A stretch of DNA of 64,000 bases from Bacillales bacterium UBA784. GTDB lineage: Bacteria; Bacillota_I; Bacilli_A; RFN20; CAG-288. Below the pieces are notes generated by a model. That model was given only the letters and a program-made list of their open reading frames with translations. It was not told the DNA's origin and did not search any database. Where the stretch lies: contig DBJE01000013.1 in assembly GCA_002297045.1 (NCBI GenBank), positions 127,791 to 191,790 of the forward strand, in the 5' to 3' direction. Made by a program: the position numbers and the translations under genes. Below, in pieces: positions 46,174-54,946 of the stretch (positions are counted from its first letter, which is position 1; every line of letters begins with the position of its first letter).

Positions 46174-47916
46174 ATGAAAAAGGGTTTCATTATTGCCATT
46201 GCTGTCTTAAGTACGGCTGTCTTGGGGACTTCTATCGGCCTTTCTGCTTCTGCTCTTGCTATTGCTTCAAATGCTAAGAATAATGCATCAGTTGCCGGTG
46301 AAAAAGGCGACAAAGGCGACACCGGTGCGGTTTCCTATTCCAACACTATTCTTCCTTCTGAAAACGGAAAAGTCATTCCGAGTGTCGGCAGTGCGCTTGT
46401 TGGAAGCGATGTAACCTTTACCTTCGTTCCGGATGAGGGTGCAAGACTCGTCACTGCTGATATCTATTCCAATGGAAAGCTGACTACCTACCATGTCGGT
46501 TATGACAAAGAAATCGTTAATGATACAATCACTCTTCCTAGGATTGCCGGCGGATATGTCGTAAAGGGCAATTTCGATGCCAGCAAGGCCAGCGTCTTTA
46601 ACGGCGGTGATGGCAGTGAAGAATATCCATATCTAGTCGGAACAGAGGATTTCGGCAGCATTGAGGGCTATGTCAGTGCTGAACCGGAAAGATATACTTA
46701 TTTCAAGGTTGAAAAGCCGAATCAGAAAATTACCGGTTGGTCAAAGTTTATTAATCTGAACGGCAGCTTTGATTTTAATGGTGCTTCCCTCGATAATTCT
46801 AAACAATTCTTGTTTAACAAAATCATTGGAACAAAGGACAATCCGGGCAAGGTTTCGAATCTGACCATTAATAATCCGTCTATTTCGACCGGTGGTTTTG
46901 GTAGTGCCCTTGCGTTTTGCCCGGATGGAAGTGTGACACTTGAGAATGTCCATATTAATGGTGGATCCGTGACTACAACTAGTGGCGCCGGATCTTTCTT
47001 TGGCTTTATCCAGGCCTCCGATCATAGGGACTGGGAAGGAGCGAACGAAATCAATTTTGTCAATTGTTCTTCCAGTAGGTCCATTACCGGCTCTTTAAAC
47101 AGTATTGCCGGTTTTGTCGGCCCGGTTCGCTTCTCAAATGGAAGCATTAAATCCGGCTTTAAGATTAATATTCATGTCGATGAAAAATCCAAATATACGG
47201 GCAATCTTATTTTTGTGAATCCTGATAGTTCGAAAGTCTTATCGGATGAGTCGGATTATGTTATTGCCGATGATTGGTATGGCATGGTTCATAATAACTG
47301 CACGGTTACTGTCGATGGCGCCGATCAATTAGCTGATGTAACGAGCAAAAAAGCAACCGATAACAATTCGTATACTATATACAATTATAAGAAGAATAAG
47401 ACTAGGGCTAAAAACACAGTGTACAATACTACCGACGGGAACGAAAACTCTGCTTATAAAACTGATATCAGCACTTTTAAAGTAGCAAAGGTTTCTACTG
47501 CTGTAAAAGCGGTTTCTTCTATTGTCGTCGGTGTGACAGAGGCGAACTATGTTGCTAATAGGACCATGGATGACTCCCTGACATCCACAACCGAAGACGG
47601 AAAGGAATACTTTGTCACTTCCAAAGCTAAGTCTTATAAGATTGGTATCAATGGTCATTTCTATGATCAGAATGGAAATAAGATTACTTCCGGAACTCCG
47701 AACTGGACATTAACAGCCTCTAATGCCAATAGTTTTACTATCAATGGGGATTATCTGATGCTTCAAGGTGCTTCAGCTACAGAGGAATCCTGGAAGAAGG
47801 CTTTCGGCTTATATGGAGCTAAGGCTGTGGTCACTCAGTATGACAAAGATGGAAATGTTGTTGGATTGACGACTATTGCTTTTGCTAAAAAGTCTGCTTT
47901 TGAAGATCTTCAATAA
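46174..47916 (+). CDS. Membrane-anchored surface protein (short collagen-like GxxGxxGxx, Ig-like module, beta-helix/GLUG-like region)
   Basis: N-terminal TM anchor IIAIAVLSTAVLG, GEKGDKGDTG, repeated GGFGSALAF / AGSFFGFI / IAGFVGPV motifs. ACGGAGGA RBS. Confidence 0.75.
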   Translation: MKKGFIIAIAVLSTAVLGTSIGLSASALAIASNAKNNASVAGEKGDKGDTGAVSYSNTILPSENGKVIPSVGSALVGSDVTFTFVPDEGARLVTADIYSNGKLTTYHVGYDKEIVNDTITLPRIAGGYVVKGNFDASKASVFNGGDGSEEYPYLVGTEDFGSIEGYVSAEPERYTYFKVEKPNQKITGWSKFINLNGSFDFNGASLDNSKQFLFNKIIGTKDNPGKVSNLTINNPSISTGGFGSALAFCPDGSVTLENVHINGGSVTTTSGAGSFFGFIQASDHRDWEGANEINFVNCSSSRSITGSLNSIAGFVGPVRFSNGSIKSGFKINIHVDEKSKYTGNLIFVNPDSSKVLSDESDYVIADDWYGMVHNNCTVTVDGADQLADVTSKKATDNNSYTIYNYKKNKTRAKNTVYNTTDGNENSAYKTDISTFKVAKVSTAVKAVSSIVVGVTEANYVANRTMDDSLTSTTEDGKEYFVTSKAKSYKIGINGHFYDQNGNKITSGTPNWTLTASNANSFTINGDYLMLQGASATEESWKKAFGLYGAKAVVTQYDKDGNVVGLTTIAFAKKSAFEDLQ

Positions 47917-48032
47917 CATAGCGACGGATAGGAGGATTTTACTTTTGGTTCAATCTCTATTTAGTTGAGAATCTCTTTCCTTTTTGATATCATTTTGAAG
48001 TTTTCCGTCACTTGAAAGGGTTAACGAAAATC

Positions 48033-49709
48033 ATGAAGCTAAACTTGAAAAGTAAGTCCTCGTCTGCCTTTGTCTGGTCTCTGATTTATGGTGTCTGCGT
48101 ATTAGTTTCCGGCTTTCTTCTTGACACTTCCTTTTCTAATTTTAAACTAATTTCCAGCGCCAGAAGTGTCCTGAAAATACCTGCCATCAACGCAAGCGCC
48201 CGCTCCTGGCTTGTCTTAGTTGTTACAACGGCGTGGCTCCTTCTTTCCTTCTTTACTATCCTTCTGGAAAAGAATGCTGCTGAGAAGAGAGGGAAGAGCC
48301 TTTCCGATAACCGCTGGTTTGCTATTAGCCTTTCAACGGGAATCGGTCTGTTCATCCTTAGGATTCAGCTAGATATTCTTGCCCTTGTTCCTTTAAAACT
48401 CAGCTCTGTCCTTCAGGCCCTGATTTTCTTAGGAAGCTGCTATTTGTTTGCTTTGCCGATTTTCGTCATTTCCGCCGTTATTATCGCTGCCCTTTATTTC
48501 TTCTTAAAAAAGGCAATCCATGATGGAATTACCGATGAAGAAACCTCTCTTGATTCTTTGATTGAAGGCGGCAGCAACACGACAACAGAAGGAGAAGAAA
48601 CTATGCAAACCAAAGAAGAAGTATTCCCTGGTCTATGCTTTGTCGATACGAAATTCGAAAATGCTAAGCCGTCTGTTGTCCAGGATACCGACATTACTCT
48701 GAAAGACTTTGTCACCCGTTTCAGACTTTATCTCGCCCAGGAAGAGAAACTCTATTTTGATGAACTTGTCCTTCGGGAATTTGTTGCCGGAATGGCTTCC
48801 AGTCATCTTCTGATTCTTGAAGGCCTCTCCGGAACAGGTAAGTCTTCTCTTGCCCGGTATGTCTCAAAGTTTATCGGAGAACAGTCTTATTTCGAGTCCG
48901 TCCAGGCTTCCTGGCATGATAATACCGCCATTCTCGGTTATTACAACGACTTTTCCAAAAAGTATAAAGAAACTGAGTTCCTTAAACGGTTATATGAATT
49001 CACTTATCGTCCCAATGATGTCAACATCATGGTTCTCGATGAGGTGAACATCTCCCGTATCGAGTACTACTTTGCCGATTTCCTTTCCATCCTCGAATAT
49101 CCGACCGACCTATGGAAGGTGAAGATCAGGGAGCTTCCTTTTGGCTTTGTTCCTCCTTCTCATCTGGAAAACGGATTTGTGCAGATTCCTAAGGGTACCT
49201 GGTTTATCGGCACTGCGAACAAGGATGATTCCACCTACACCATTACCGACAAGGTATATGACCGTGCTATTTCCATATCCTTCAATTCCATTAATATCCC
49301 GTTCGAAGTCAACGAAAAGATTGATCCTATCCATATCTCCTATCCGCATCTTGTTTCTAGGTTTGAAGAAGCTAAGGGCAATATGGCTAACTGTCTGAGC
49401 AAAGAAGACATTGGAACCTTCCAAAAGATTACGAATTATATTTATCAGACCTTCGATATTGCCTTCGGCAACCGTGTCTGGAACCAGATTATCACTTTCG
49501 TTCCTGTCTTTGTCGCCTGTGGCGGAACCAAGCTTGAAGCATTGGACTTCCTTCTTGCAAGAAAGTACCTCTATAAACTCCAGGGACGTTATGAGAGTTT
49601 TATCAAGCCGGGACTTTTAAACCTTCAGAATAGGATTGCCAACACTTACGGCGAAGGAAACTTCAAGCAGACGAATCGTCTGCTGGAGAACATGATTCAT
49701 AAGCTTTAA
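48033..49709 (+). CDS. Membrane-anchored McrB-like AAA+ NTPase
   Basis: About 165 N-terminal aa contain 4-5 TM helices, followed by an acidic linker and an AAA+ core. The core has Walker A GLSGTGKSS (48822-48848), Walker B IMVLDEVN (DE at 49038-49043) followed by ISRIEYYFADFLSILE, and WFIGTANKDDSTYTITDKVYDRAISISF. This matches the McrB pattern DEINRAN..KVFGEL..L..IGTMNTADRS...D.ALRRRF. Confidence 0.75.
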   Translation: MKLNLKSKSSSAFVWSLIYGVCVLVSGFLLDTSFSNFKLISSARSVLKIPAINASARSWLVLVVTTAWLLLSFFTILLEKNAAEKRGKSLSDNRWFAISLSTGIGLFILRIQLDILALVPLKLSSVLQALIFLGSCYLFALPIFVISAVIIAALYFFLKKAIHDGITDEETSLDSLIEGGSNTTTEGEETMQTKEEVFPGLCFVDTKFENAKPSVVQDTDITLKDFVTRFRLYLAQEEKLYFDELVLREFVAGMASSHLLILEGLSGTGKSSLARYVSKFIGEQSYFESVQASWHDNTAILGYYNDFSKKYKETEFLKRLYEFTYRPNDVNIMVLDEVNISRIEYYFADFLSILEYPTDLWKVKIRELPFGFVPPSHLENGFVQIPKGTWFIGTANKDDSTYTITDKVYDRAISISFNSINIPFEVNEKIDPIHISYPHLVSRFEEAKGNMANCLSKEDIGTFQKITNYIYQTFDIAFGNRVWNQIITFVPVFVACGGTKLEALDFLLARKYLYKLQGRYESFIKPGLLNLQNRIANTYGEGNFKQTNRLLENMIHKL

Positions 49710-49711
49710 TT

Positions 49712-51088
49712 ATGATTAATGACTTTTTAAAGGAAACCCTGGACAAAAGGAAGGACTCGTTAAAGAGTTCTTCTTTTCTTGAATCCATTAAAAACGGTTC
49801 TATTCCTCTTTCGGTCATTTTCACGAAAGTCGAACTGGAAAGCCGTCTTGATGATATCGCCCTTTGTCTCGAGAGAATTTTAGGAATTGCCACAAAACCC
49901 CATTTTCAGTCCAGTACACAAGAGGTCATTAAGCTTAGTGAGACGACCTCCAGTATTTCCTCAAACCAGTTCAGGAAGACTAGGCAGCATCCCGCCCTTT
50001 GGAAGCAGAACGATAGCGGGAGTTATCCAGAGAAGGTCTATACTTCGGAAAAGACAGAGACAATCAATATTTACGAGAACCGCTTCATCATTCTTCTCCT
50101 GTCAAAGATTGTTGATGAGGTGTCTCTCATTTCCCAGGAATATGTTTCCCATCATCCCACCCTTATTTCAAATACTTCCTCCAAGTGCCTTACCTTTGAG
50201 GGGCCTGGCCCGTTTAACTCTTTTGACTTCCTGAAATTTCCCTATGAATTCAAGGTGTCTGCTCCAAACGAAGATGACAAGCTTGAAAACAGGTTCCTGA
50301 AAGTCAAAGGTAGGATTTCGGTCATTAAGCAGACTGACTTCTATTGTTCTTTATCTAAGCTCCCTCCGATAGACTTCATCAGTCCGACCAATATTCTGAT
50401 TCATGAGATTTCCTACAATTACTGCTATAAATTCTACATTAAGAACTTCCTGAACAAGTCGGAAGACAGGAACACGCTCTACTATAATTTCGTCATTCTG
50501 ACTCTGCTTAGTGTCCTTCCATTCCCTCTAGAGGATAAGAGAGCCCATTTAAGAATCGATGAATACAGCCGTTTACGTTTTGATCCTTCCCGGATCAAGA
50601 TTGGAAATGTAGTTCTCCGTCTCTATGAGGACGTTCCTGATCTTGGCTTCGTCCTAGAAACGAGGATAACGGATGATCAGGAGAACGTCCTTGATTCTTC
50701 CTCCTACTATCTATTGACGACGGAGAATTACAACGAGGACAACTCTCCTCTTATCCAGGAAGCCCTGAAGAAGAAACTAGGGCAATATACGGATGCTTTT
50801 GTCGTCACTTTGAACAACACGACAAGTGAATTAGACCATATACTCAACATCAAGTTCTCCAACGATAAATTCAAGTCCATATGGGAGAATTTTGCTAAGC
50901 AGATGACCTTTTTCGTCGATTTGCATGGCGACTCCTACTATTTGAACAACTGCCCAGTCTGCGGAAGTGATCTTATTGTCCACAAGGATAATGACGCATT
51001 CTGTGACAATTGTAAGAGCCATTTCCATCTTGCAAAAGTCAACGGAAAAGAAGTCCTGTGGATTAATTCTGTGTTGCGAAAGGAATAA
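49712..51088 (+). CDS. McrC/DUF2357-like partner protein with a C-terminal Zn-ribbon and no recognisable PD-(D/E)xK nuclease
   Basis: Starts 2 nt after the McrB-like stop. NIYENRFIILLLSKIV (YENR at 50072-50083) resembles the McrC N-domain motif (E. coli McrC NEDTLANRIIKSTLAIL). C-terminal CPVC...CDNC (50951-51013). Confidence 0.6.
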   Translation: MINDFLKETLDKRKDSLKSSSFLESIKNGSIPLSVIFTKVELESRLDDIALCLERILGIATKPHFQSSTQEVIKLSETTSSISSNQFRKTRQHPALWKQNDSGSYPEKVYTSEKTETINIYENRFIILLLSKIVDEVSLISQEYVSHHPTLISNTSSKCLTFEGPGPFNSFDFLKFPYEFKVSAPNEDDKLENRFLKVKGRISVIKQTDFYCSLSKLPPIDFISPTNILIHEISYNYCYKFYIKNFLNKSEDRNTLYYNFVILTLLSVLPFPLEDKRAHLRIDEYSRLRFDPSRIKIGNVVLRLYEDVPDLGFVLETRITDDQENVLDSSSYYLLTTENYNEDNSPLIQEALKKKLGQYTDAFVVTLNNTTSELDHILNIKFSNDKFKSIWENFAKQMTFFVDLHGDSYYLNNCPVCGSDLIVHKDNDAFCDNCKSHFHLAKVNGKEVLWINSVLRKE

Positions 51089-51125
51089 GATTCTTCTCCT
51101 CACTCTTGGTTTTGATCTTTTTTAA

Positions 51126-51163
51126 AAGGGTTTCCTTTCTTTTATGGGAAGCCCTTTTGTTTT
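51126..51163 (+). terminator. Terminator after the McrBC-like pair
   Basis: AAGGGTTTCC / GGAAGCCCTT stem (one mismatch) followed by TTTTGTTTT. Confidence 0.75.
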
Positions 51164-51317
51164 CATCCTTTTGATCTGTTTTCCATCTGTCTCTGCTATC
51201 TCCAGCCGAGTCCAGAAGCGGAGGAAGAATTTCCTGCAAGGTCGAAACCAAAAATGAAAGTTCTTCCTCATCCGTGACGGATGAAGTGTTCCGCGAACTA
51301 GTTGGTAGATGGTGACA

Positions 51318-51487: not shown

Positions 51488-51694
51488 TTATTGGTTGTCG
51501 ACGAGTAATAGAATCCCAGCAATAAGATTCAGAAAAAGTAAGACGCAGACATTAAACCCAGTGGACAATTCTTTCTCGCCTTTGTATGCCTTATAGACAC
51601 TGACAGTCATAGGAATGCACCAGATTAGTGGAATCAATAACCAACCTATCGCAATTGTCGACAGAACACATAAGATAAATGCTGCTAGTTTCAT
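51488..51694 (-). CDS. Hypothetical small membrane protein (2 TM)
   Basis: 68 aa: MKLAAFILCVLSTIAIGWLLIPLIWCIP...VCVLLFLNLIAGILLL. AAGGGGG RBS 7 nt before the ATG. Has its own promoter and terminator. Confidence 0.6.
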   Translation of the reverse strand: MKLAAFILCVLSTIAIGWLLIPLIWCIPMTVSVYKAYKGEKELSTGFNVCVLLFLNLIAGILLLVDNQ

Positions 51695-52677: not shown

Positions 52678-52964
52678 AGGAACAAAGCCTATTTACTATA
52701 CAGGTTTTCATTTCGTTTATCAAGATGAAAAATGACGAGAAACACAACTTTGCATATAATTTTGCTTATGATGATAAAGACAAGTAAGCCTTGTAAAAAG
52801 TATTTAGTGTAGTATATAATTACCTTTGCGCCATAGTGCGTTATAACCATAGGTGCGGATCTTGCCGACTAGTCCTCTATGTCCATTATTGGTCAACCAC
52901 AAAGCGGGACATATTGGGTTGGCATCTTGAAACATCTAGAAGTTCAACAAAAAGGAGGCTCAAA

Positions 52965-54047
52965 ATGAGCGAAGAAGAGAAGAAAGTCGAAGTTGCTCCG
53001 GCCGAAGCCGAAGCCAATGTCAGGCAGAGCATTGAACATAAGCCTGATGACCCGGTCGTTTCCCCTAAGGCACTGCTTGCCGCAGGATGCCATTTCGGAC
53101 ACCGTGTTTCCCGTTGGAATCCGAAGAGGAGCAAGTATATCTACGGGAAGCGTAACAACCTTCATCTTATCGATTTGAACAAATCTGCTGCTCAGAGGCA
53201 GGTTGCCTACCAGGCCTTAAAGGATATTGTTTCCAAAGGCGGAAAGGTTCTCTTTGTCGGAACTAAGGCGTATGCCCAGAAGGCTATCACCGAGGAAGCC
53301 ATCCGTTCCGGTTCCTTCTATGTTGCTAAGCGTTGGCTTGGCGGCACCCTCACCAACTTCCATACTATTTTAAAACGTATCGGATTACTTCGTACGATCG
53401 AGCAGGAAGAATTATCCGGCGAATTAGAGAAACTTCCGAAGAAGGAAGCTGCCGAACGTCTTAAACTGAAAGCTAAATTATCCGCTAATCTGGAAGGCAT
53501 CAAGGAAATCCGCAAGCTTCCGGAAGCTGTTGTCATTGTCGATCCGAAGACTGAACATAATGCCGTTGCTGAGGCCCGTCTCCTCCACATCCCTGTTTTT
53601 GCCTTAGGCGATACCAACACTGATCCCGATTTAATCGACTACCTTGTTCCGGCAAACGATGATGGGGAAGCTTCCATTCGTTTGATTGTCGGCTTATTTG
53701 CCGATGCCGTTGTCGAAGGAAAAGGCGGCGAGCCGGTCTATGCCTATAAGGATGCTGATGCTGCTGCCCAGACGAGGGCTGACAGGCTCAAAGGTGTTGA
53801 CCAGACCGAGCAGATTAAGTCTATCCGTGCCAAGCTCCGTGATGATGCTATCGCAAGGCGTAAGAACGGAAAACGTAATGCCCGTAAACGTTTCATCAAG
53901 AAGAACTTCCATCGCTTCGGTGATCAGAATAAGCCGGAAGGGGAGAATAAGCCGGCTGCCGATGGAGCTGCTAAGCCCTCTGATGCTGCTGCCGAGACCC
54001 CTGCTGCTCCTGCTACCAATGCTGAGAACAACGGAGAAGCCAAGTAA
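52965..54047 (+). CDS. rpsB: 30S ribosomal protein S2 with N- and C-terminal extensions
   Basis: AAGGAGG RBS plus ATG 52965 (track start 52836 rejected). HFGH..S-WNPK-(AGG)-SKYIYGKRNNLHLIDL and other S2 motifs. ~100-aa Ala/Lys/Pro-rich C-terminal tail. Confidence 0.92.
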   Translation: MSEEEKKVEVAPAEAEANVRQSIEHKPDDPVVSPKALLAAGCHFGHRVSRWNPKRSKYIYGKRNNLHLIDLNKSAAQRQVAYQALKDIVSKGGKVLFVGTKAYAQKAITEEAIRSGSFYVAKRWLGGTLTNFHTILKRIGLLRTIEQEELSGELEKLPKKEAAERLKLKAKLSANLEGIKEIRKLPEAVVIVDPKTEHNAVAEARLLHIPVFALGDTNTDPDLIDYLVPANDDGEASIRLIVGLFADAVVEGKGGEPVYAYKDADAAAQTRADRLKGVDQTEQIKSIRAKLRDDAIARRKNGKRNARKRFIKKNFHRFGDQNKPEGENKPAADGAAKPSDAAAETPAAPATNAENNGEAK

Positions 54048-54946
54048 TGTCTGAGAGGATTGAATTAATCAAGCAGCTCCGTGAACGTACCGGAGCTGGA
54101 CTAAGGGACTGCAAGAAGGCTCTTCTTGCCAACGGAAACGACATCGATAAGTCAATCGATTGGCTCCGTGAGAAGGGTATTGCCAAACAGGCAAAGAAGG
54201 CTGCAACCCGTATTGCCGCAGAAGGTGTCGCTTGGTTAAGGACGGAAGGAAACAAAGCTGCCAGGATTGAAGTCAATTCCGAAACTGACTTCGTTGCCAA
54301 TTCTGATCCTTTCCGTGCCTTGGTCAAAACCATCAATACTCTTGTCCTTAAATACAGGCCGAAGACTGTCGAAGAAGCCAAAGAGCTGAAAGACGAGAAC
54401 GGCAAGAGCATTGCCGACCTCTTTGTCGATGCCGGCGTCAAGCTTGGAGAAAAGCTTGATTTCCGTCGTCTTGTCACTGTCGAAAAGGGTGCTGATGAAG
54501 TCTTTGGCCCCTATATCCATAGGAACGGAAAGATTGCCACCCTTGTCGTCTTAAAGGGCGGAAATGCTGAAGTGGCCAATAACATCGCTCTTAATGTCTG
54601 CTCCAATAATCCTTCTTATCTACATGAAAACGACATTCCCGAAGAAGTCATCAACAAGGAAATGCAGATTCAGCTCGAAGCGAGCGAACAGGATCCGAAG
54701 TTTGCCAGCAAGCCTGAGGCAATCAAACATAAGATTGTCCGCGGACGTGTTGAAAAGACTCTCTTTGAGTCCGTTCTTGATGATGAACCTCTTGTCACCG
54801 ATGATCAGAAGACCGTTGCCCAGTATTTAAAGGAGAATGGTGCTTCCCTTGTCTCCGCTTATCGTTATGCTGTCGGCGAAGGCATTGAAAAACGGCAGGA
54901 TGATTTTGCTGCCGAAGTTGCTGCCCAGGCGGGCGGAAGCAAGTAG
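54047..54946 (+). CDS. tsf: Elongation factor Ts
   Basis: LRERTGAGL-(AGG)-DCKKAL, WLREKGIAKQAKKA, EVNSETDFVA. Confidence 0.95.
   Translation: MSERIELIKQLRERTGAGLRDCKKALLANGNDIDKSIDWLREKGIAKQAKKAATRIAAEGVAWLRTEGNKAARIEVNSETDFVANSDPFRALVKTINTLVLKYRPKTVEEAKELKDENGKSIADLFVDAGVKLGEKLDFRRLVTVEKGADEVFGPYIHRNGKIATLVVLKGGNAEVANNIALNVCSNNPSYLHENDIPEEVINKEMQIQLEASEQDPKFASKPEAIKHKIVRGRVEKTLFESVLDDEPLVTDDQKTVAQYLKENGASLVSAYRYAVGEGIEKRQDDFAAEVAAQAGGSK

Follow-up and report, generated by a model that had tools for sequence, protein, structure and literature searches.

A membrane-anchored, nuclease-less relative of McrBC in gut Bacilli, probably associated with surface filaments

The stretch of DNA analyzed here, hereafter the window, is a 64,000-nucleotide (nt) section of a contig from Bacillales bacterium UBA784 (assembly GCA_002297045.1, contig DBJE01000013.1, positions 127,791 to 191,790 of the forward strand; coordinates below count from its first letter). 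It contains two adjacent forward-strand genes, gene A (48033–49709; 558 amino acids, aa) and gene B (49712–51088; 458 aa). An earlier reading of the window, made from the sequence only, had described the pair as a two-gene McrBC-like module and a candidate defense system; both open reading frames (ORFs) were found where it placed them, all the motifs it quoted were located, and the 2-nt gap it reported is correct, with the stop codon of gene A ending at 49709 and the ATG of gene B at 49712. Gene A encodes four transmembrane (TM) helices that a short acidic linker joins to an McrB-like AAA+ GTPase core of the NxD type. The product of gene B has no TM segment and is made up of a DUF2357 (McrC N-terminal) domain, a non-conserved β-rich region and a C4 zinc ribbon. 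A and B together are a McrBC-derived, nuclease-less, membrane-anchored GTPase module of the NxD branch. In almost all relatives the pair is internal to one operon for surface proteins, and it is on balance probably a module associated with surface filaments, not a defense system.

The membrane domain of A (48066–48500) comprises TM1–TM4 at residues 12–30, 56–74, 103–121 and 138–156, assigned by hydropathy and positive-inside analysis, with both ends of the domain inside. The N-terminus and the loop at residues 75–102 are rich in lysine and arginine, and the AAA+ domain is therefore cytoplasmic. Four to five TM segments had been proposed; the membrane anchor stands, but the number is four. The same plan is found in homologs L003, L004 and L089, and the more distant A-B pairs, L089 among them, retain the four-helix anchor. 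An AlphaFold2 (AF2) model of A (overall pLDDT 75) has long helices in the TM region, with pLDDT 71–88 for residues 11–160 except for 65 at residues 111–120. No DNA-binding family was matched in A with Pfam or NCBIfam, which agrees with the proposal that a membrane domain takes the place of the McrB DNA reader. The linker of the window's A is short and disordered (AF2 pLDDT <50 at residues 167–191), and that of L089 is long, acidic and helical. A hallmark motif of the family, VFPGLCFVD (48621–48647; residues 197–205), separates the acidic linker from the AAA+ core. Its V197, F198, P199, L201 and D205 do not vary in alignment A1, and V197 is conserved at 90% or more in alignment A4. The motif takes the form [VL]FPALTxID in L088–L090, which are distant members, and [VL]FP[GA]L[CT]x[IV]D in the wider family; E. 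coli McrB has nothing that corresponds to it.

The AAA+ core begins with a Walker A motif, GLSGTGKS (48822–48845; residues 264–271), which aligns with GPPGVGKT of E. coli McrB. G264 and S266-G267-T268-G269-K270-S271 are invariant in both A1 and A4, and L265 is invariant in A1 and conserved at 90% or more in A4. Walker B, IMVLDE (49026–49043; residues 332–337, within IMVLDEVN at 332–339), aligns with IFIIDE of E. coli McrB, and M333-V334-L335-D336-E337 are invariant in the two alignments. The remaining motifs located in A include ISRIEYYFADFLSILEY and FIGTANKDDSTYTITDKVYDRA. The GTPase signature is N-K-D-D (49218–49229; residues 396–399), an invariant NxD followed by an acidic residue. In a joint alignment, the invariant T-A-N-K-D-D-S-T of A is in register with T-A-N-H-D-E-T-T of plasmid CoCoNuT-like GTPases, whereas the E. 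coli McrB sequence reads M-N-T-A-D-R-S, with N-T-A-D (NxxD) as its signature. The NxD clade has been defined by the signature “NxD, usually followed by E or a second D” (PMC11090510). Since the N-K-D-D of A aligns with the N-H-D-E of the CoCoNuT type, A is an McrB-like GTPase of this clade. The Walker A, Walker B, NxD and arginine (R411) positions are all intact, and the core is tightly constrained, with about 110 invariant positions among sequences that are 44–74% identical overall. With its motifs conserved, A may hydrolyze GTP specifically and be stimulated in this by B.

Profile comparisons place A with McrB. Pfam gave a sub-threshold match to AAA_5 alone, and the only PDB sequence match of A is E. 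coli McrB. Compared by hhalign, the A family matches E. coli McrB with 90.6% probability (E 1.3e-6) over 173 columns that begin at Walker A and extend across the Nx(x)D loop, whereas the MoxR-type protein RavA reaches 6.9% over 42 columns. A MoxR- or dynein-type ATPase was rejected on these values, and because the partner is a DUF2357 protein and not a VWA protein; the McrB-type assignment of the earlier reading is thus upheld. Foldseek with the model of A was non-discriminating, placing MCM and RavA first and also returning NorQ, BrxL and McrB at similarly weak scores (Thermococcus gammatolerans McrB at rank 48), and a PDB profile search with the A family gave nothing significant. The closest annotated relatives are “AAA family ATPases” of about 800 aa on plasmids of Deinococcus, Rhodoferax and Pseudanabaena, each followed by a “DUF2357 domain-containing protein”. 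A is 34–37% identical to these CoCoNuT-like GTPases over about 355 residues, and 21% identical to E. coli McrB over 185.

The DUF2357 domain of B (49856–50611; about residues 49–300) includes the motifs YENRF (50072–50086; residues 121–125) and PTNILIHE (residues 225–232). B passes the gathering score of Pfam PF09823 (37.9 bits against 23.3), a model that matches 18 of 30 diverse family members, and hhalign aligns about residues 49–300 of the B family with the DUF2357 partners of plasmid CoCoNuT-type systems at 97.3% (Rhodoferax, 254 columns) and 96.1%. The description of gene B as an McrC-like DUF2357 protein is borne out by these matches. Similarity to E. coli McrC itself was not detectable (hhalign 0.2%). 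Apart from its DUF2357 motifs and cysteines, B evolves fast: in 79 members, conservation is limited to the DUF2357 domain (P63, W97, P106-E107, Y121-E122-N123, T226-N227 and Y235, of which P63, P106, Y121, E122, N123 and Y235 are invariant), four cysteines and W450. The four cysteines form the C4 zinc ribbon (50951–51013; residues 414–434), CPVC at 414–417 and CDNC at 431–434. They are 100% conserved among the 79 members, and the ribbon can be taken as real. A B profile matches ribosomal-type zinc ribbons in the PDB at E 0.002–0.005, and several zinc-ribbon Pfam families match B below threshold. In the AF2 model of B, helices at residues 115–147 and 189–206 flank a disordered insert, and there is no long coiled coil.

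In McrC, a PD-(D/E)xK nuclease occupies the position of the variable region of B (50612–50950; about residues 301–413). The sequence-only reading had found no nuclease signature there, and the wider comparison agrees: no aspartate, glutamate or lysine is conserved between about residues 250 and 410 in 79 sequences, no nuclease family was matched in Pfam scans of 30 family members, and Foldseek of the B model (pLDDT 68) against the PDB returned nothing significant and no PD-(D/E)xK match. AF2 gives the variable region an α/β pattern with pLDDT 50–83.

Several distant relatives of B have extended architectures. P0265, P0278 and the protein at L089 10001–13144 are fused to a GNAT acetyltransferase, and the genes that come after A-B at L089 encode an 8-TM protein, a histidine kinase of the LytS type, an acyltransferase_3 protein, a response regulator and glycosyltransferases. 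The B-family proteins at L088 (1090–4377) and L090 (1649–4150) carry one to three C-terminal repeats of about 150 aa, separated by acidic, Pro/Glu-rich linkers. The repeat has the consensus …YY.ELKN.I..YKKVS.R.SW..E.F….K.RL..RGKTLV.FFALD…TPMMVK… and no Pfam match.

The family is large and its context is fixed. More than 7,900 homologs of A are present in the protein collection, and an exhaustive search for B gave 815 cluster representatives at 50% identity; a word-indexed search had returned 12–13 matches for B, even with a 30-sequence profile. A occurs in at least 584 species-representative genomes, all of them from uncultured gut Bacilli or “Mollicutes”-like bacteria, including UBA Bacillales, Ca. 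Onthovivens, Ca. Enteromonas, Anaeroplasmataceae and CAG:324. For a census of gene order, ORFs were called in the 80 best loci and labeled by phmmer. In about 68 of the 80, the pair lies within one fixed operon, in which two to seven paralogous genes for exported proteins (fib) and a signal peptidase gene of the SipW type are followed by A and B, and these by genes for an ABC ATPase, a 12-TM permease, a protein of about 830 aa (Big) and an Flg_new surface protein. B is the next gene after A in 74 of 75 loci, most often at a distance of 1–5 nt, and SipW lies directly 5′ of A in 60 of 70. Among the 52 loci with at least 9 kb of downstream sequence, the ABC ATPase was found in 44, the 12-TM permease in 45, Big in 49 and Flg_new in 46. 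The main exception to the fixed order is an extra gene of 838–889 aa between SipW and A in L026, L028 and L039.

The SipW proteins pass TIGR02228 (65.9 bits against a cutoff of 51.85). The paralogous fib proteins, encoded 5′ of SipW, are 230–290 aa long, and in 136 of 170 the N-terminal hydrophobic segment ends in G-F-[AS]-x-W. Judged from the motif, the three residues G-F-(A/S) would be the −3 to −1 positions of a signal-peptidase site, and a cut between them and x-W would expose a hydrophobic new N-terminus. The 12-TM protein belongs to PF09847 according to a precomputed match only. No Pfam family was found for fib or for the collagen-like protein described below, and no NCBIfam family for these two, Big or the 12-TM protein; PDB profile searches with fib and Big gave nothing significant.

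The window holds a short form of this arrangement. Directly 5′ of A lies a gene for an exported or membrane-anchored collagen-like surface protein (Coll, 46174–47916, forward strand), with one N-terminal TM or signal segment that serves as a signal-anchor, a G-x-y run (GEKGDKGDTGAV) and a domain of about 500 aa of unknown fold. The run varies from 4 to 19 triplets across close relatives, which suggests a stalk of variable length, and hhalign revealed no relation of Coll to fib, Big or Flg_new. The Coll-A-B order is confined to the window, four species-representative relatives (L006, L007, L008 and L043) and two near-identical metagenome contigs (L001 and L002), and in all of these Coll directly precedes A. 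The short-form A proteins are 58–84% identical to that of the window, and the short-form B proteins have K74-L75 in place of the family-wide R75 and do not retain D93. No homolog of SipW, fib, Big or the 12-TM protein is encoded within the 64-kb window. One metagenome-assembled genome, UBA743, carries a short form (L006) and a full operon (L060) on the same contig (DBKT01000004.1), about 190 kb apart, and the A protein of that full operon is 41% identical to the A of the window. As both forms occur on one contig, the window's pair is an old paralog of the operon's A-B, not a remnant of it. The pair inside the operon is thus read as the ancestral form, and the window's copy as an old paralogous duplicate (A′, B′) linked to a collagen-like filament protein.

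Translation of these genes depends on a reassigned codon. Within 13 long ORFs of the window, internal AGG codons number 130 and ATG codons 47, and the AGG codons of gene A fall at columns where homologs have methionine or leucine (residue 366, for example, is methionine in 12 of 13 sequences). The codon counts and the alignment bear out the earlier suggestion that AGG is read as methionine. The usage matches a clade with this reassignment that has already been published (Bacilli of the GTDB groups UBA7642, CAG-288 and RFN20; PMC8629427). AGG was therefore translated as methionine here, at four sites in A and seven in B. The change affects the whole window, for example rpsB (52962–54047) and tsf (54047–54946), and standard table-11 translations of the window are wrong at each AGG.

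The pair ends, as had been claimed, at its own intrinsic terminator (51123–51168, forward strand), a strong 14-bp hairpin (51123–51159; core GGGUUUCC/GGAAGCCC) whose 3′ arm ends in UUUU and is followed by GUUUU. The RNA fold of 51086–51185 has a free energy of −24 kcal/mol (z = −3.76), and 0 of 200 shuffled sequences were as stable. A pattern scan missed this hairpin because its loop is 9 nt. A promoter-like site with an extended TG, TTGAGA-17-TATCAT (47965–47993, forward strand), lies between Coll and A; it matches the consensus at 10 of 12 positions, which is weak evidence. No terminator was found between Coll and A, and co-transcription of the two is for this reason also possible. On the other strand, a convergent ORF of 68 aa (51488–51694), very hydrophobic by eye, lies just downstream of B and has a strong terminator of its own (51351–51323). 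This ORF matches no family, and relatives do not conserve it beside the A-B pair.

The placement of the pair in an accessory stretch next to tRNA-Glu is not supported. The tRNA-Glu gene is 1.5 kb downstream on the opposite strand, and the MFS and GDPD genes upstream have partial synteny with those of close relatives; insertion beside the tRNA, or a mobile island, is not supported either. Genes downstream of B differ among the relatives. The flanks consist of housekeeping genes (MFS, HAD, tRNA-Glu, rpsB, tsf), and no features of mobile elements turned up in them, although no dedicated search was made.

In these surface-protein operons a GTPase related to a restriction enzyme is present, but in the absence of a nuclease, what is its role? 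Its fixed position between a dedicated signal peptidase and an ABC exporter, and the attachment, in the window's clade, of a paralogous pair to a further surface protein, are what make an association with surface filaments the reading we favor, if by no great measure of certainty. Several observations count against it. The function of all A-B family members is predicted. Filament formation by the fib proteins is deduced from their linkage to SipW, the number of paralogs and the signal motif, and these proteins have no similarity to TasA, BsaA, camelysin, pilins or solved structures in Pfam, NCBIfam and PDB profile searches. The window's own locus is without SipW, fib, ABC and Big genes, and its link to the surface comes only from the conserved upstream collagen-like gene and from paralogy. 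Among the distant A-B pairs, some are isolated or have other neighbors (L090). We know of no requirement for an NTPase in TasA-type fibers, and zinc ribbons often bind nucleic acids. The variable region of B may also be an inactivated or cryptic PD-(D/E)xK nuclease fold; the order of secondary structure at residues 253–405 is compatible with a degenerate fold of this kind, in a model that is weak (pLDDT 68).

The sequence-only reading had favored a standalone anti-phage or abortive-infection system in which B activates the McrB-like NTPase and thereby a membrane effector, the TM domain of A, in place of DNA cleavage. The McrBC ancestry of the pair speaks for this, as do two further points, the match of A to the PADLOC candidate PDC-M26A (E 3.9e-34) and the fact that the nearest outgroups are plasmid CoCoNuT-like operons that adjoin toxin-antitoxin genes and are regarded as defense. 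At the window the pair has its own promoter-like site and terminator, neighborhoods downstream of B vary among relatives, and surface fibers are common phage receptors, so that a guard function is conceivable. However, defense systems are typically patchy and island-borne, and this family occupies a fixed SipW/surface-fiber operon in most species-level loci, is always paired and spans hundreds of species. A search of 2.9 million viral contigs gave 48 pattern matches, of which none encodes a relative, and no close copies of A-B were found on phages or plasmids: two distant matches of A in phage records are about 30% identical or less, and the matches of A on plasmids, none of which reaches 37% identity, resemble CoCoNuT or classical McrB proteins. 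Homologs are thus essentially not associated with defense islands or mobile elements, an association whose lack the earlier reading had itself named as telling against defense. The PADLOC comparison of the pair yielded a domain-level match of A only (residues 222–356 against profile positions 298–431 of 724). All NxD GTPases tested match PDC-M26A similarly (111–152 bits), and neither B nor the partner proteins of those GTPases match any PADLOC model. Because the plasmid CoCoNuT-like proteins match equally and the partners match nothing, the match reflects the shared NxD-type GTPase domain only, and membership in PDC-M26, of which no mention was found in the literature searched, was rejected. 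The housekeeping flanks, a core of A conserved far beyond that of usual arms-race genes and the absence of a recognizable sensor domain for foreign nucleic acids also stand against this explanation, and a defense function is unsupported and in our judgment unlikely. Of the phage-record matches, a single one is near full length: an ORF on an unannotated “Bacteriophage sp.” contig from human feces (MT835511.1, 39950–41206) is 30% identical to the AAA+ core of A over 99% of its length.

Two further explanations were considered. A-B could be a membrane-tethered, nucleic-acid-directed regulator resembling CoCoNuTs, with the ribbon and degenerate region of B binding RNA (such as the mRNAs of neighboring genes) and the GTPase coupling translation or RNA stability to secretion or quality control. 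The NxD-clade CoCoNuTs, which are characterized by prediction, have been proposed to target RNA (PMC11090510); the invariant C4 ribbon of B resembles those of ribosomal proteins, B keeps its variable region although the catalytic residues are lost, and the pair always adjoins genes for abundantly secreted proteins. Yet Pfam scans of 30 B members revealed no RNA-binding domain (CSD, YTH, SmpB-like or similar), the zinc-ribbon matches are generic as well as below threshold, and the GNAT-fused distant B, in its setting of glycosyltransferases and acyltransferase, suggests envelope chemistry; we consider such a regulator quite improbable. The other explanation is a general morphogenesis factor of the envelope or division site (acting, for example, on membrane domains or septal sites) that is co-regulated with surface genes and has no direct action on filament proteins. 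FtsB-like TM and coiled-coil fusions have been reported in the related CoCoPALM GTPases (PMC11090510), the pair is conserved across the whole lineage in the manner of a housekeeping gene, and the neighbors of L089 include glycosyltransferases, an acyltransferase and a two-component system of the LytS type. The L089 neighborhood, with its GNAT-fused B, points to envelope biology and not to defense. Against a general factor stand the very tight and specific gene order from SipW to the ABC exporter, the coupling, in the window's clade, of a dedicated paralog to another surface protein and the lack of a DivIC/FtsB Pfam match in A and in the A of L089. Such a role is, if anything, more doubtful still than RNA regulation.

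If A-B is associated with surface filaments, how might it act? The particular mechanical model outlined here is held with much less confidence than that association. In McrBC, the N-terminal domain of McrC enters the hexamer of McrB and stimulates its hydrolysis of GTP (PMC11090510). By analogy, A would form a hexameric AAA+ ring beneath the membrane, anchored by 24 TM helices, and B, produced in fixed proportion to A through tight translational coupling, would insert its DUF2357 stalk into the ring and stimulate hydrolysis as McrC does. Motion of the ring could be relayed via a helix joining TM4 and the linker to the membrane domain, where it might aid the extraction, polymerization or anchoring of filament subunits after signal-peptide removal. 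The degenerate C-terminal region and zinc ribbon of B would then be a docking or dimerization element, not a nuclease. In its fullest form, the proposal is that A-B is the motor or platform of an undescribed surface-filament machine: an exapted restriction GTPase ring with four TM helices per subunit, switched by a nuclease-less relative of McrC and driving the assembly or anchoring of SipW-processed fib filaments or collagen-like Coll filaments, core to an order-level lineage of gut Bacilli with reduced genomes and present as a second, specialized copy in the clade that reads AGG as methionine. We offer this tentatively, as a picture with somewhat less than even chances of being right in all its parts.

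If the favored reading, an association with surface filaments, is right, this would be a clear case of a defense-type motor, McrBC, recruited to build or hold a surface structure, and A would be the sole NTPase besides the ABC exporter in an operon that uncultured gut bacteria of at least 584 species conserve. A major surface feature (such as an adhesin, fiber or matrix) of the uncultured RFN20, Onthovivens and Anaeroplasma-like bacteria is probably encoded by this operon. For annotation, a match to a PADLOC candidate or an McrB/DUF2357 pair should not be called defense without a check of its context.

Comparison with known systems begins with McrBC of E. coli K-12. Both comprise two adjacent or overlapping genes for an AAA+ GTPase and its activator, the Walker A, Walker B and Nx(x)D loops align, and the partner contains the McrC N-terminal domain (DUF2357). 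In contrast, A has four TM helices where McrB has its DNA-reader N-terminus, the signature is NxD and not NxxD, B is without the PD-(D/E)xK residues and the pair belongs to a surface-protein operon and not to restriction-modification genes. A classical type IV restriction system was rejected on the absence of a catalytic D...(D/E)xK in B and of a modified-DNA reader on A.

The CoCoNuT systems (CnuB/CnuC) are closer. They share with A-B the GTPase core, with the same NxD and acidic signature, and a homologous DUF2357 domain in the partner, and several CnuC types have lost or inactivated the McrC nuclease but kept CPxC zinc ribbons (PMC11090510). However, CoCoNuT GTPases have long cytoplasmic coiled coils and no TM segments, whereas A is membrane-anchored. 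CoCoNuTs occur on plasmids and islands with kinases, extra AAA proteins, helicases, toxin-antitoxin genes and associated HEPN or other nucleases, and the A-B family is chromosomal, fixed in its operon and accompanied by none of these genes. The plasmids of Deinococcus sp. AJ005, Rhodoferax antarcticus and Pseudanabaena sp. ABRG5-3 carry one conserved operon in the order Ser/Thr kinase, AAA protein of about 1100 aa, protein of about 490 aa, NxD GTPase of about 800 aa and DUF2357 protein, an arrangement that resembles a CoCoNuT system extended at its 5′ end. A helicase-related gene and a Phd/VapC toxin-antitoxin pair adjoin the Pseudanabaena operon.

On the surface side, the full operon resembles the SipW-TasA/BsaA operons (tapA-sipW-tasA of B. 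subtilis and sipW-bsaABC of C. perfringens) in combining an archaeal/ER-type signal peptidase I with several paralogous secreted proteins of about 25–30 kDa whose signal peptide is of a special kind. Where a SipW operon encodes several paralogs of TasA/BsaA, the products are membrane-anchored surface filaments formed by donor-strand exchange (PMC11580942). The known operons of this type are without an McrB-like GTPase, a DUF2357 protein or an ABC exporter, and the fib subunits are not like TasA, BsaA or camelysin; what is shared is the SipW enzyme and the logic of the signal site only. A joint mention of McrB and SipW in the literature proved coincidental, McrB there being part of an E. coli strain genotype only.

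The closest named group is CoCoPALM, matched here by its published description and not by phylogeny. Bell et al. 2024 (PMC11090510) gave this name to a membrane-anchored McrBC clade linked to signal peptidases, read it as linked to pilus assembly and deferred it to a future paper; no such follow-up was found, and the supplements of Bell et al. contain no CoCoPALM entries. The statement of the sequence-only reading that the pair is not a named system thus needs qualifying, in that a named group does lie close by, though one that has been named only and never described in detail. Both have an NxD-type McrB-like GTPase, an N-terminal membrane anchor and an McrC/DUF2357 partner, and neither is a classical restriction system. 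The signal-peptidase link is shared by the A-B family, through SipW, but not by the window's locus. CoCoPALM is described as having an FtsB-like TM and coiled-coil fusion, with coiled coils in both partners, whereas the TM helices of the window's A number four and its acidic linker is short, and neither A nor B has a long coiled coil in the AF2 models; the window's pair differs further in its collagen-like upstream partner and in having no local signal peptidase. The basic idea of a signal-peptidase-linked membrane McrBC clade is therefore already in the literature. What is new here is the full list of operon parts and the breadth of the family, and, if the reading is right, these give the CoCoPALM class concrete content: its operon parts, a topology, a set of motifs and a paralogous, collagen-linked offshoot.

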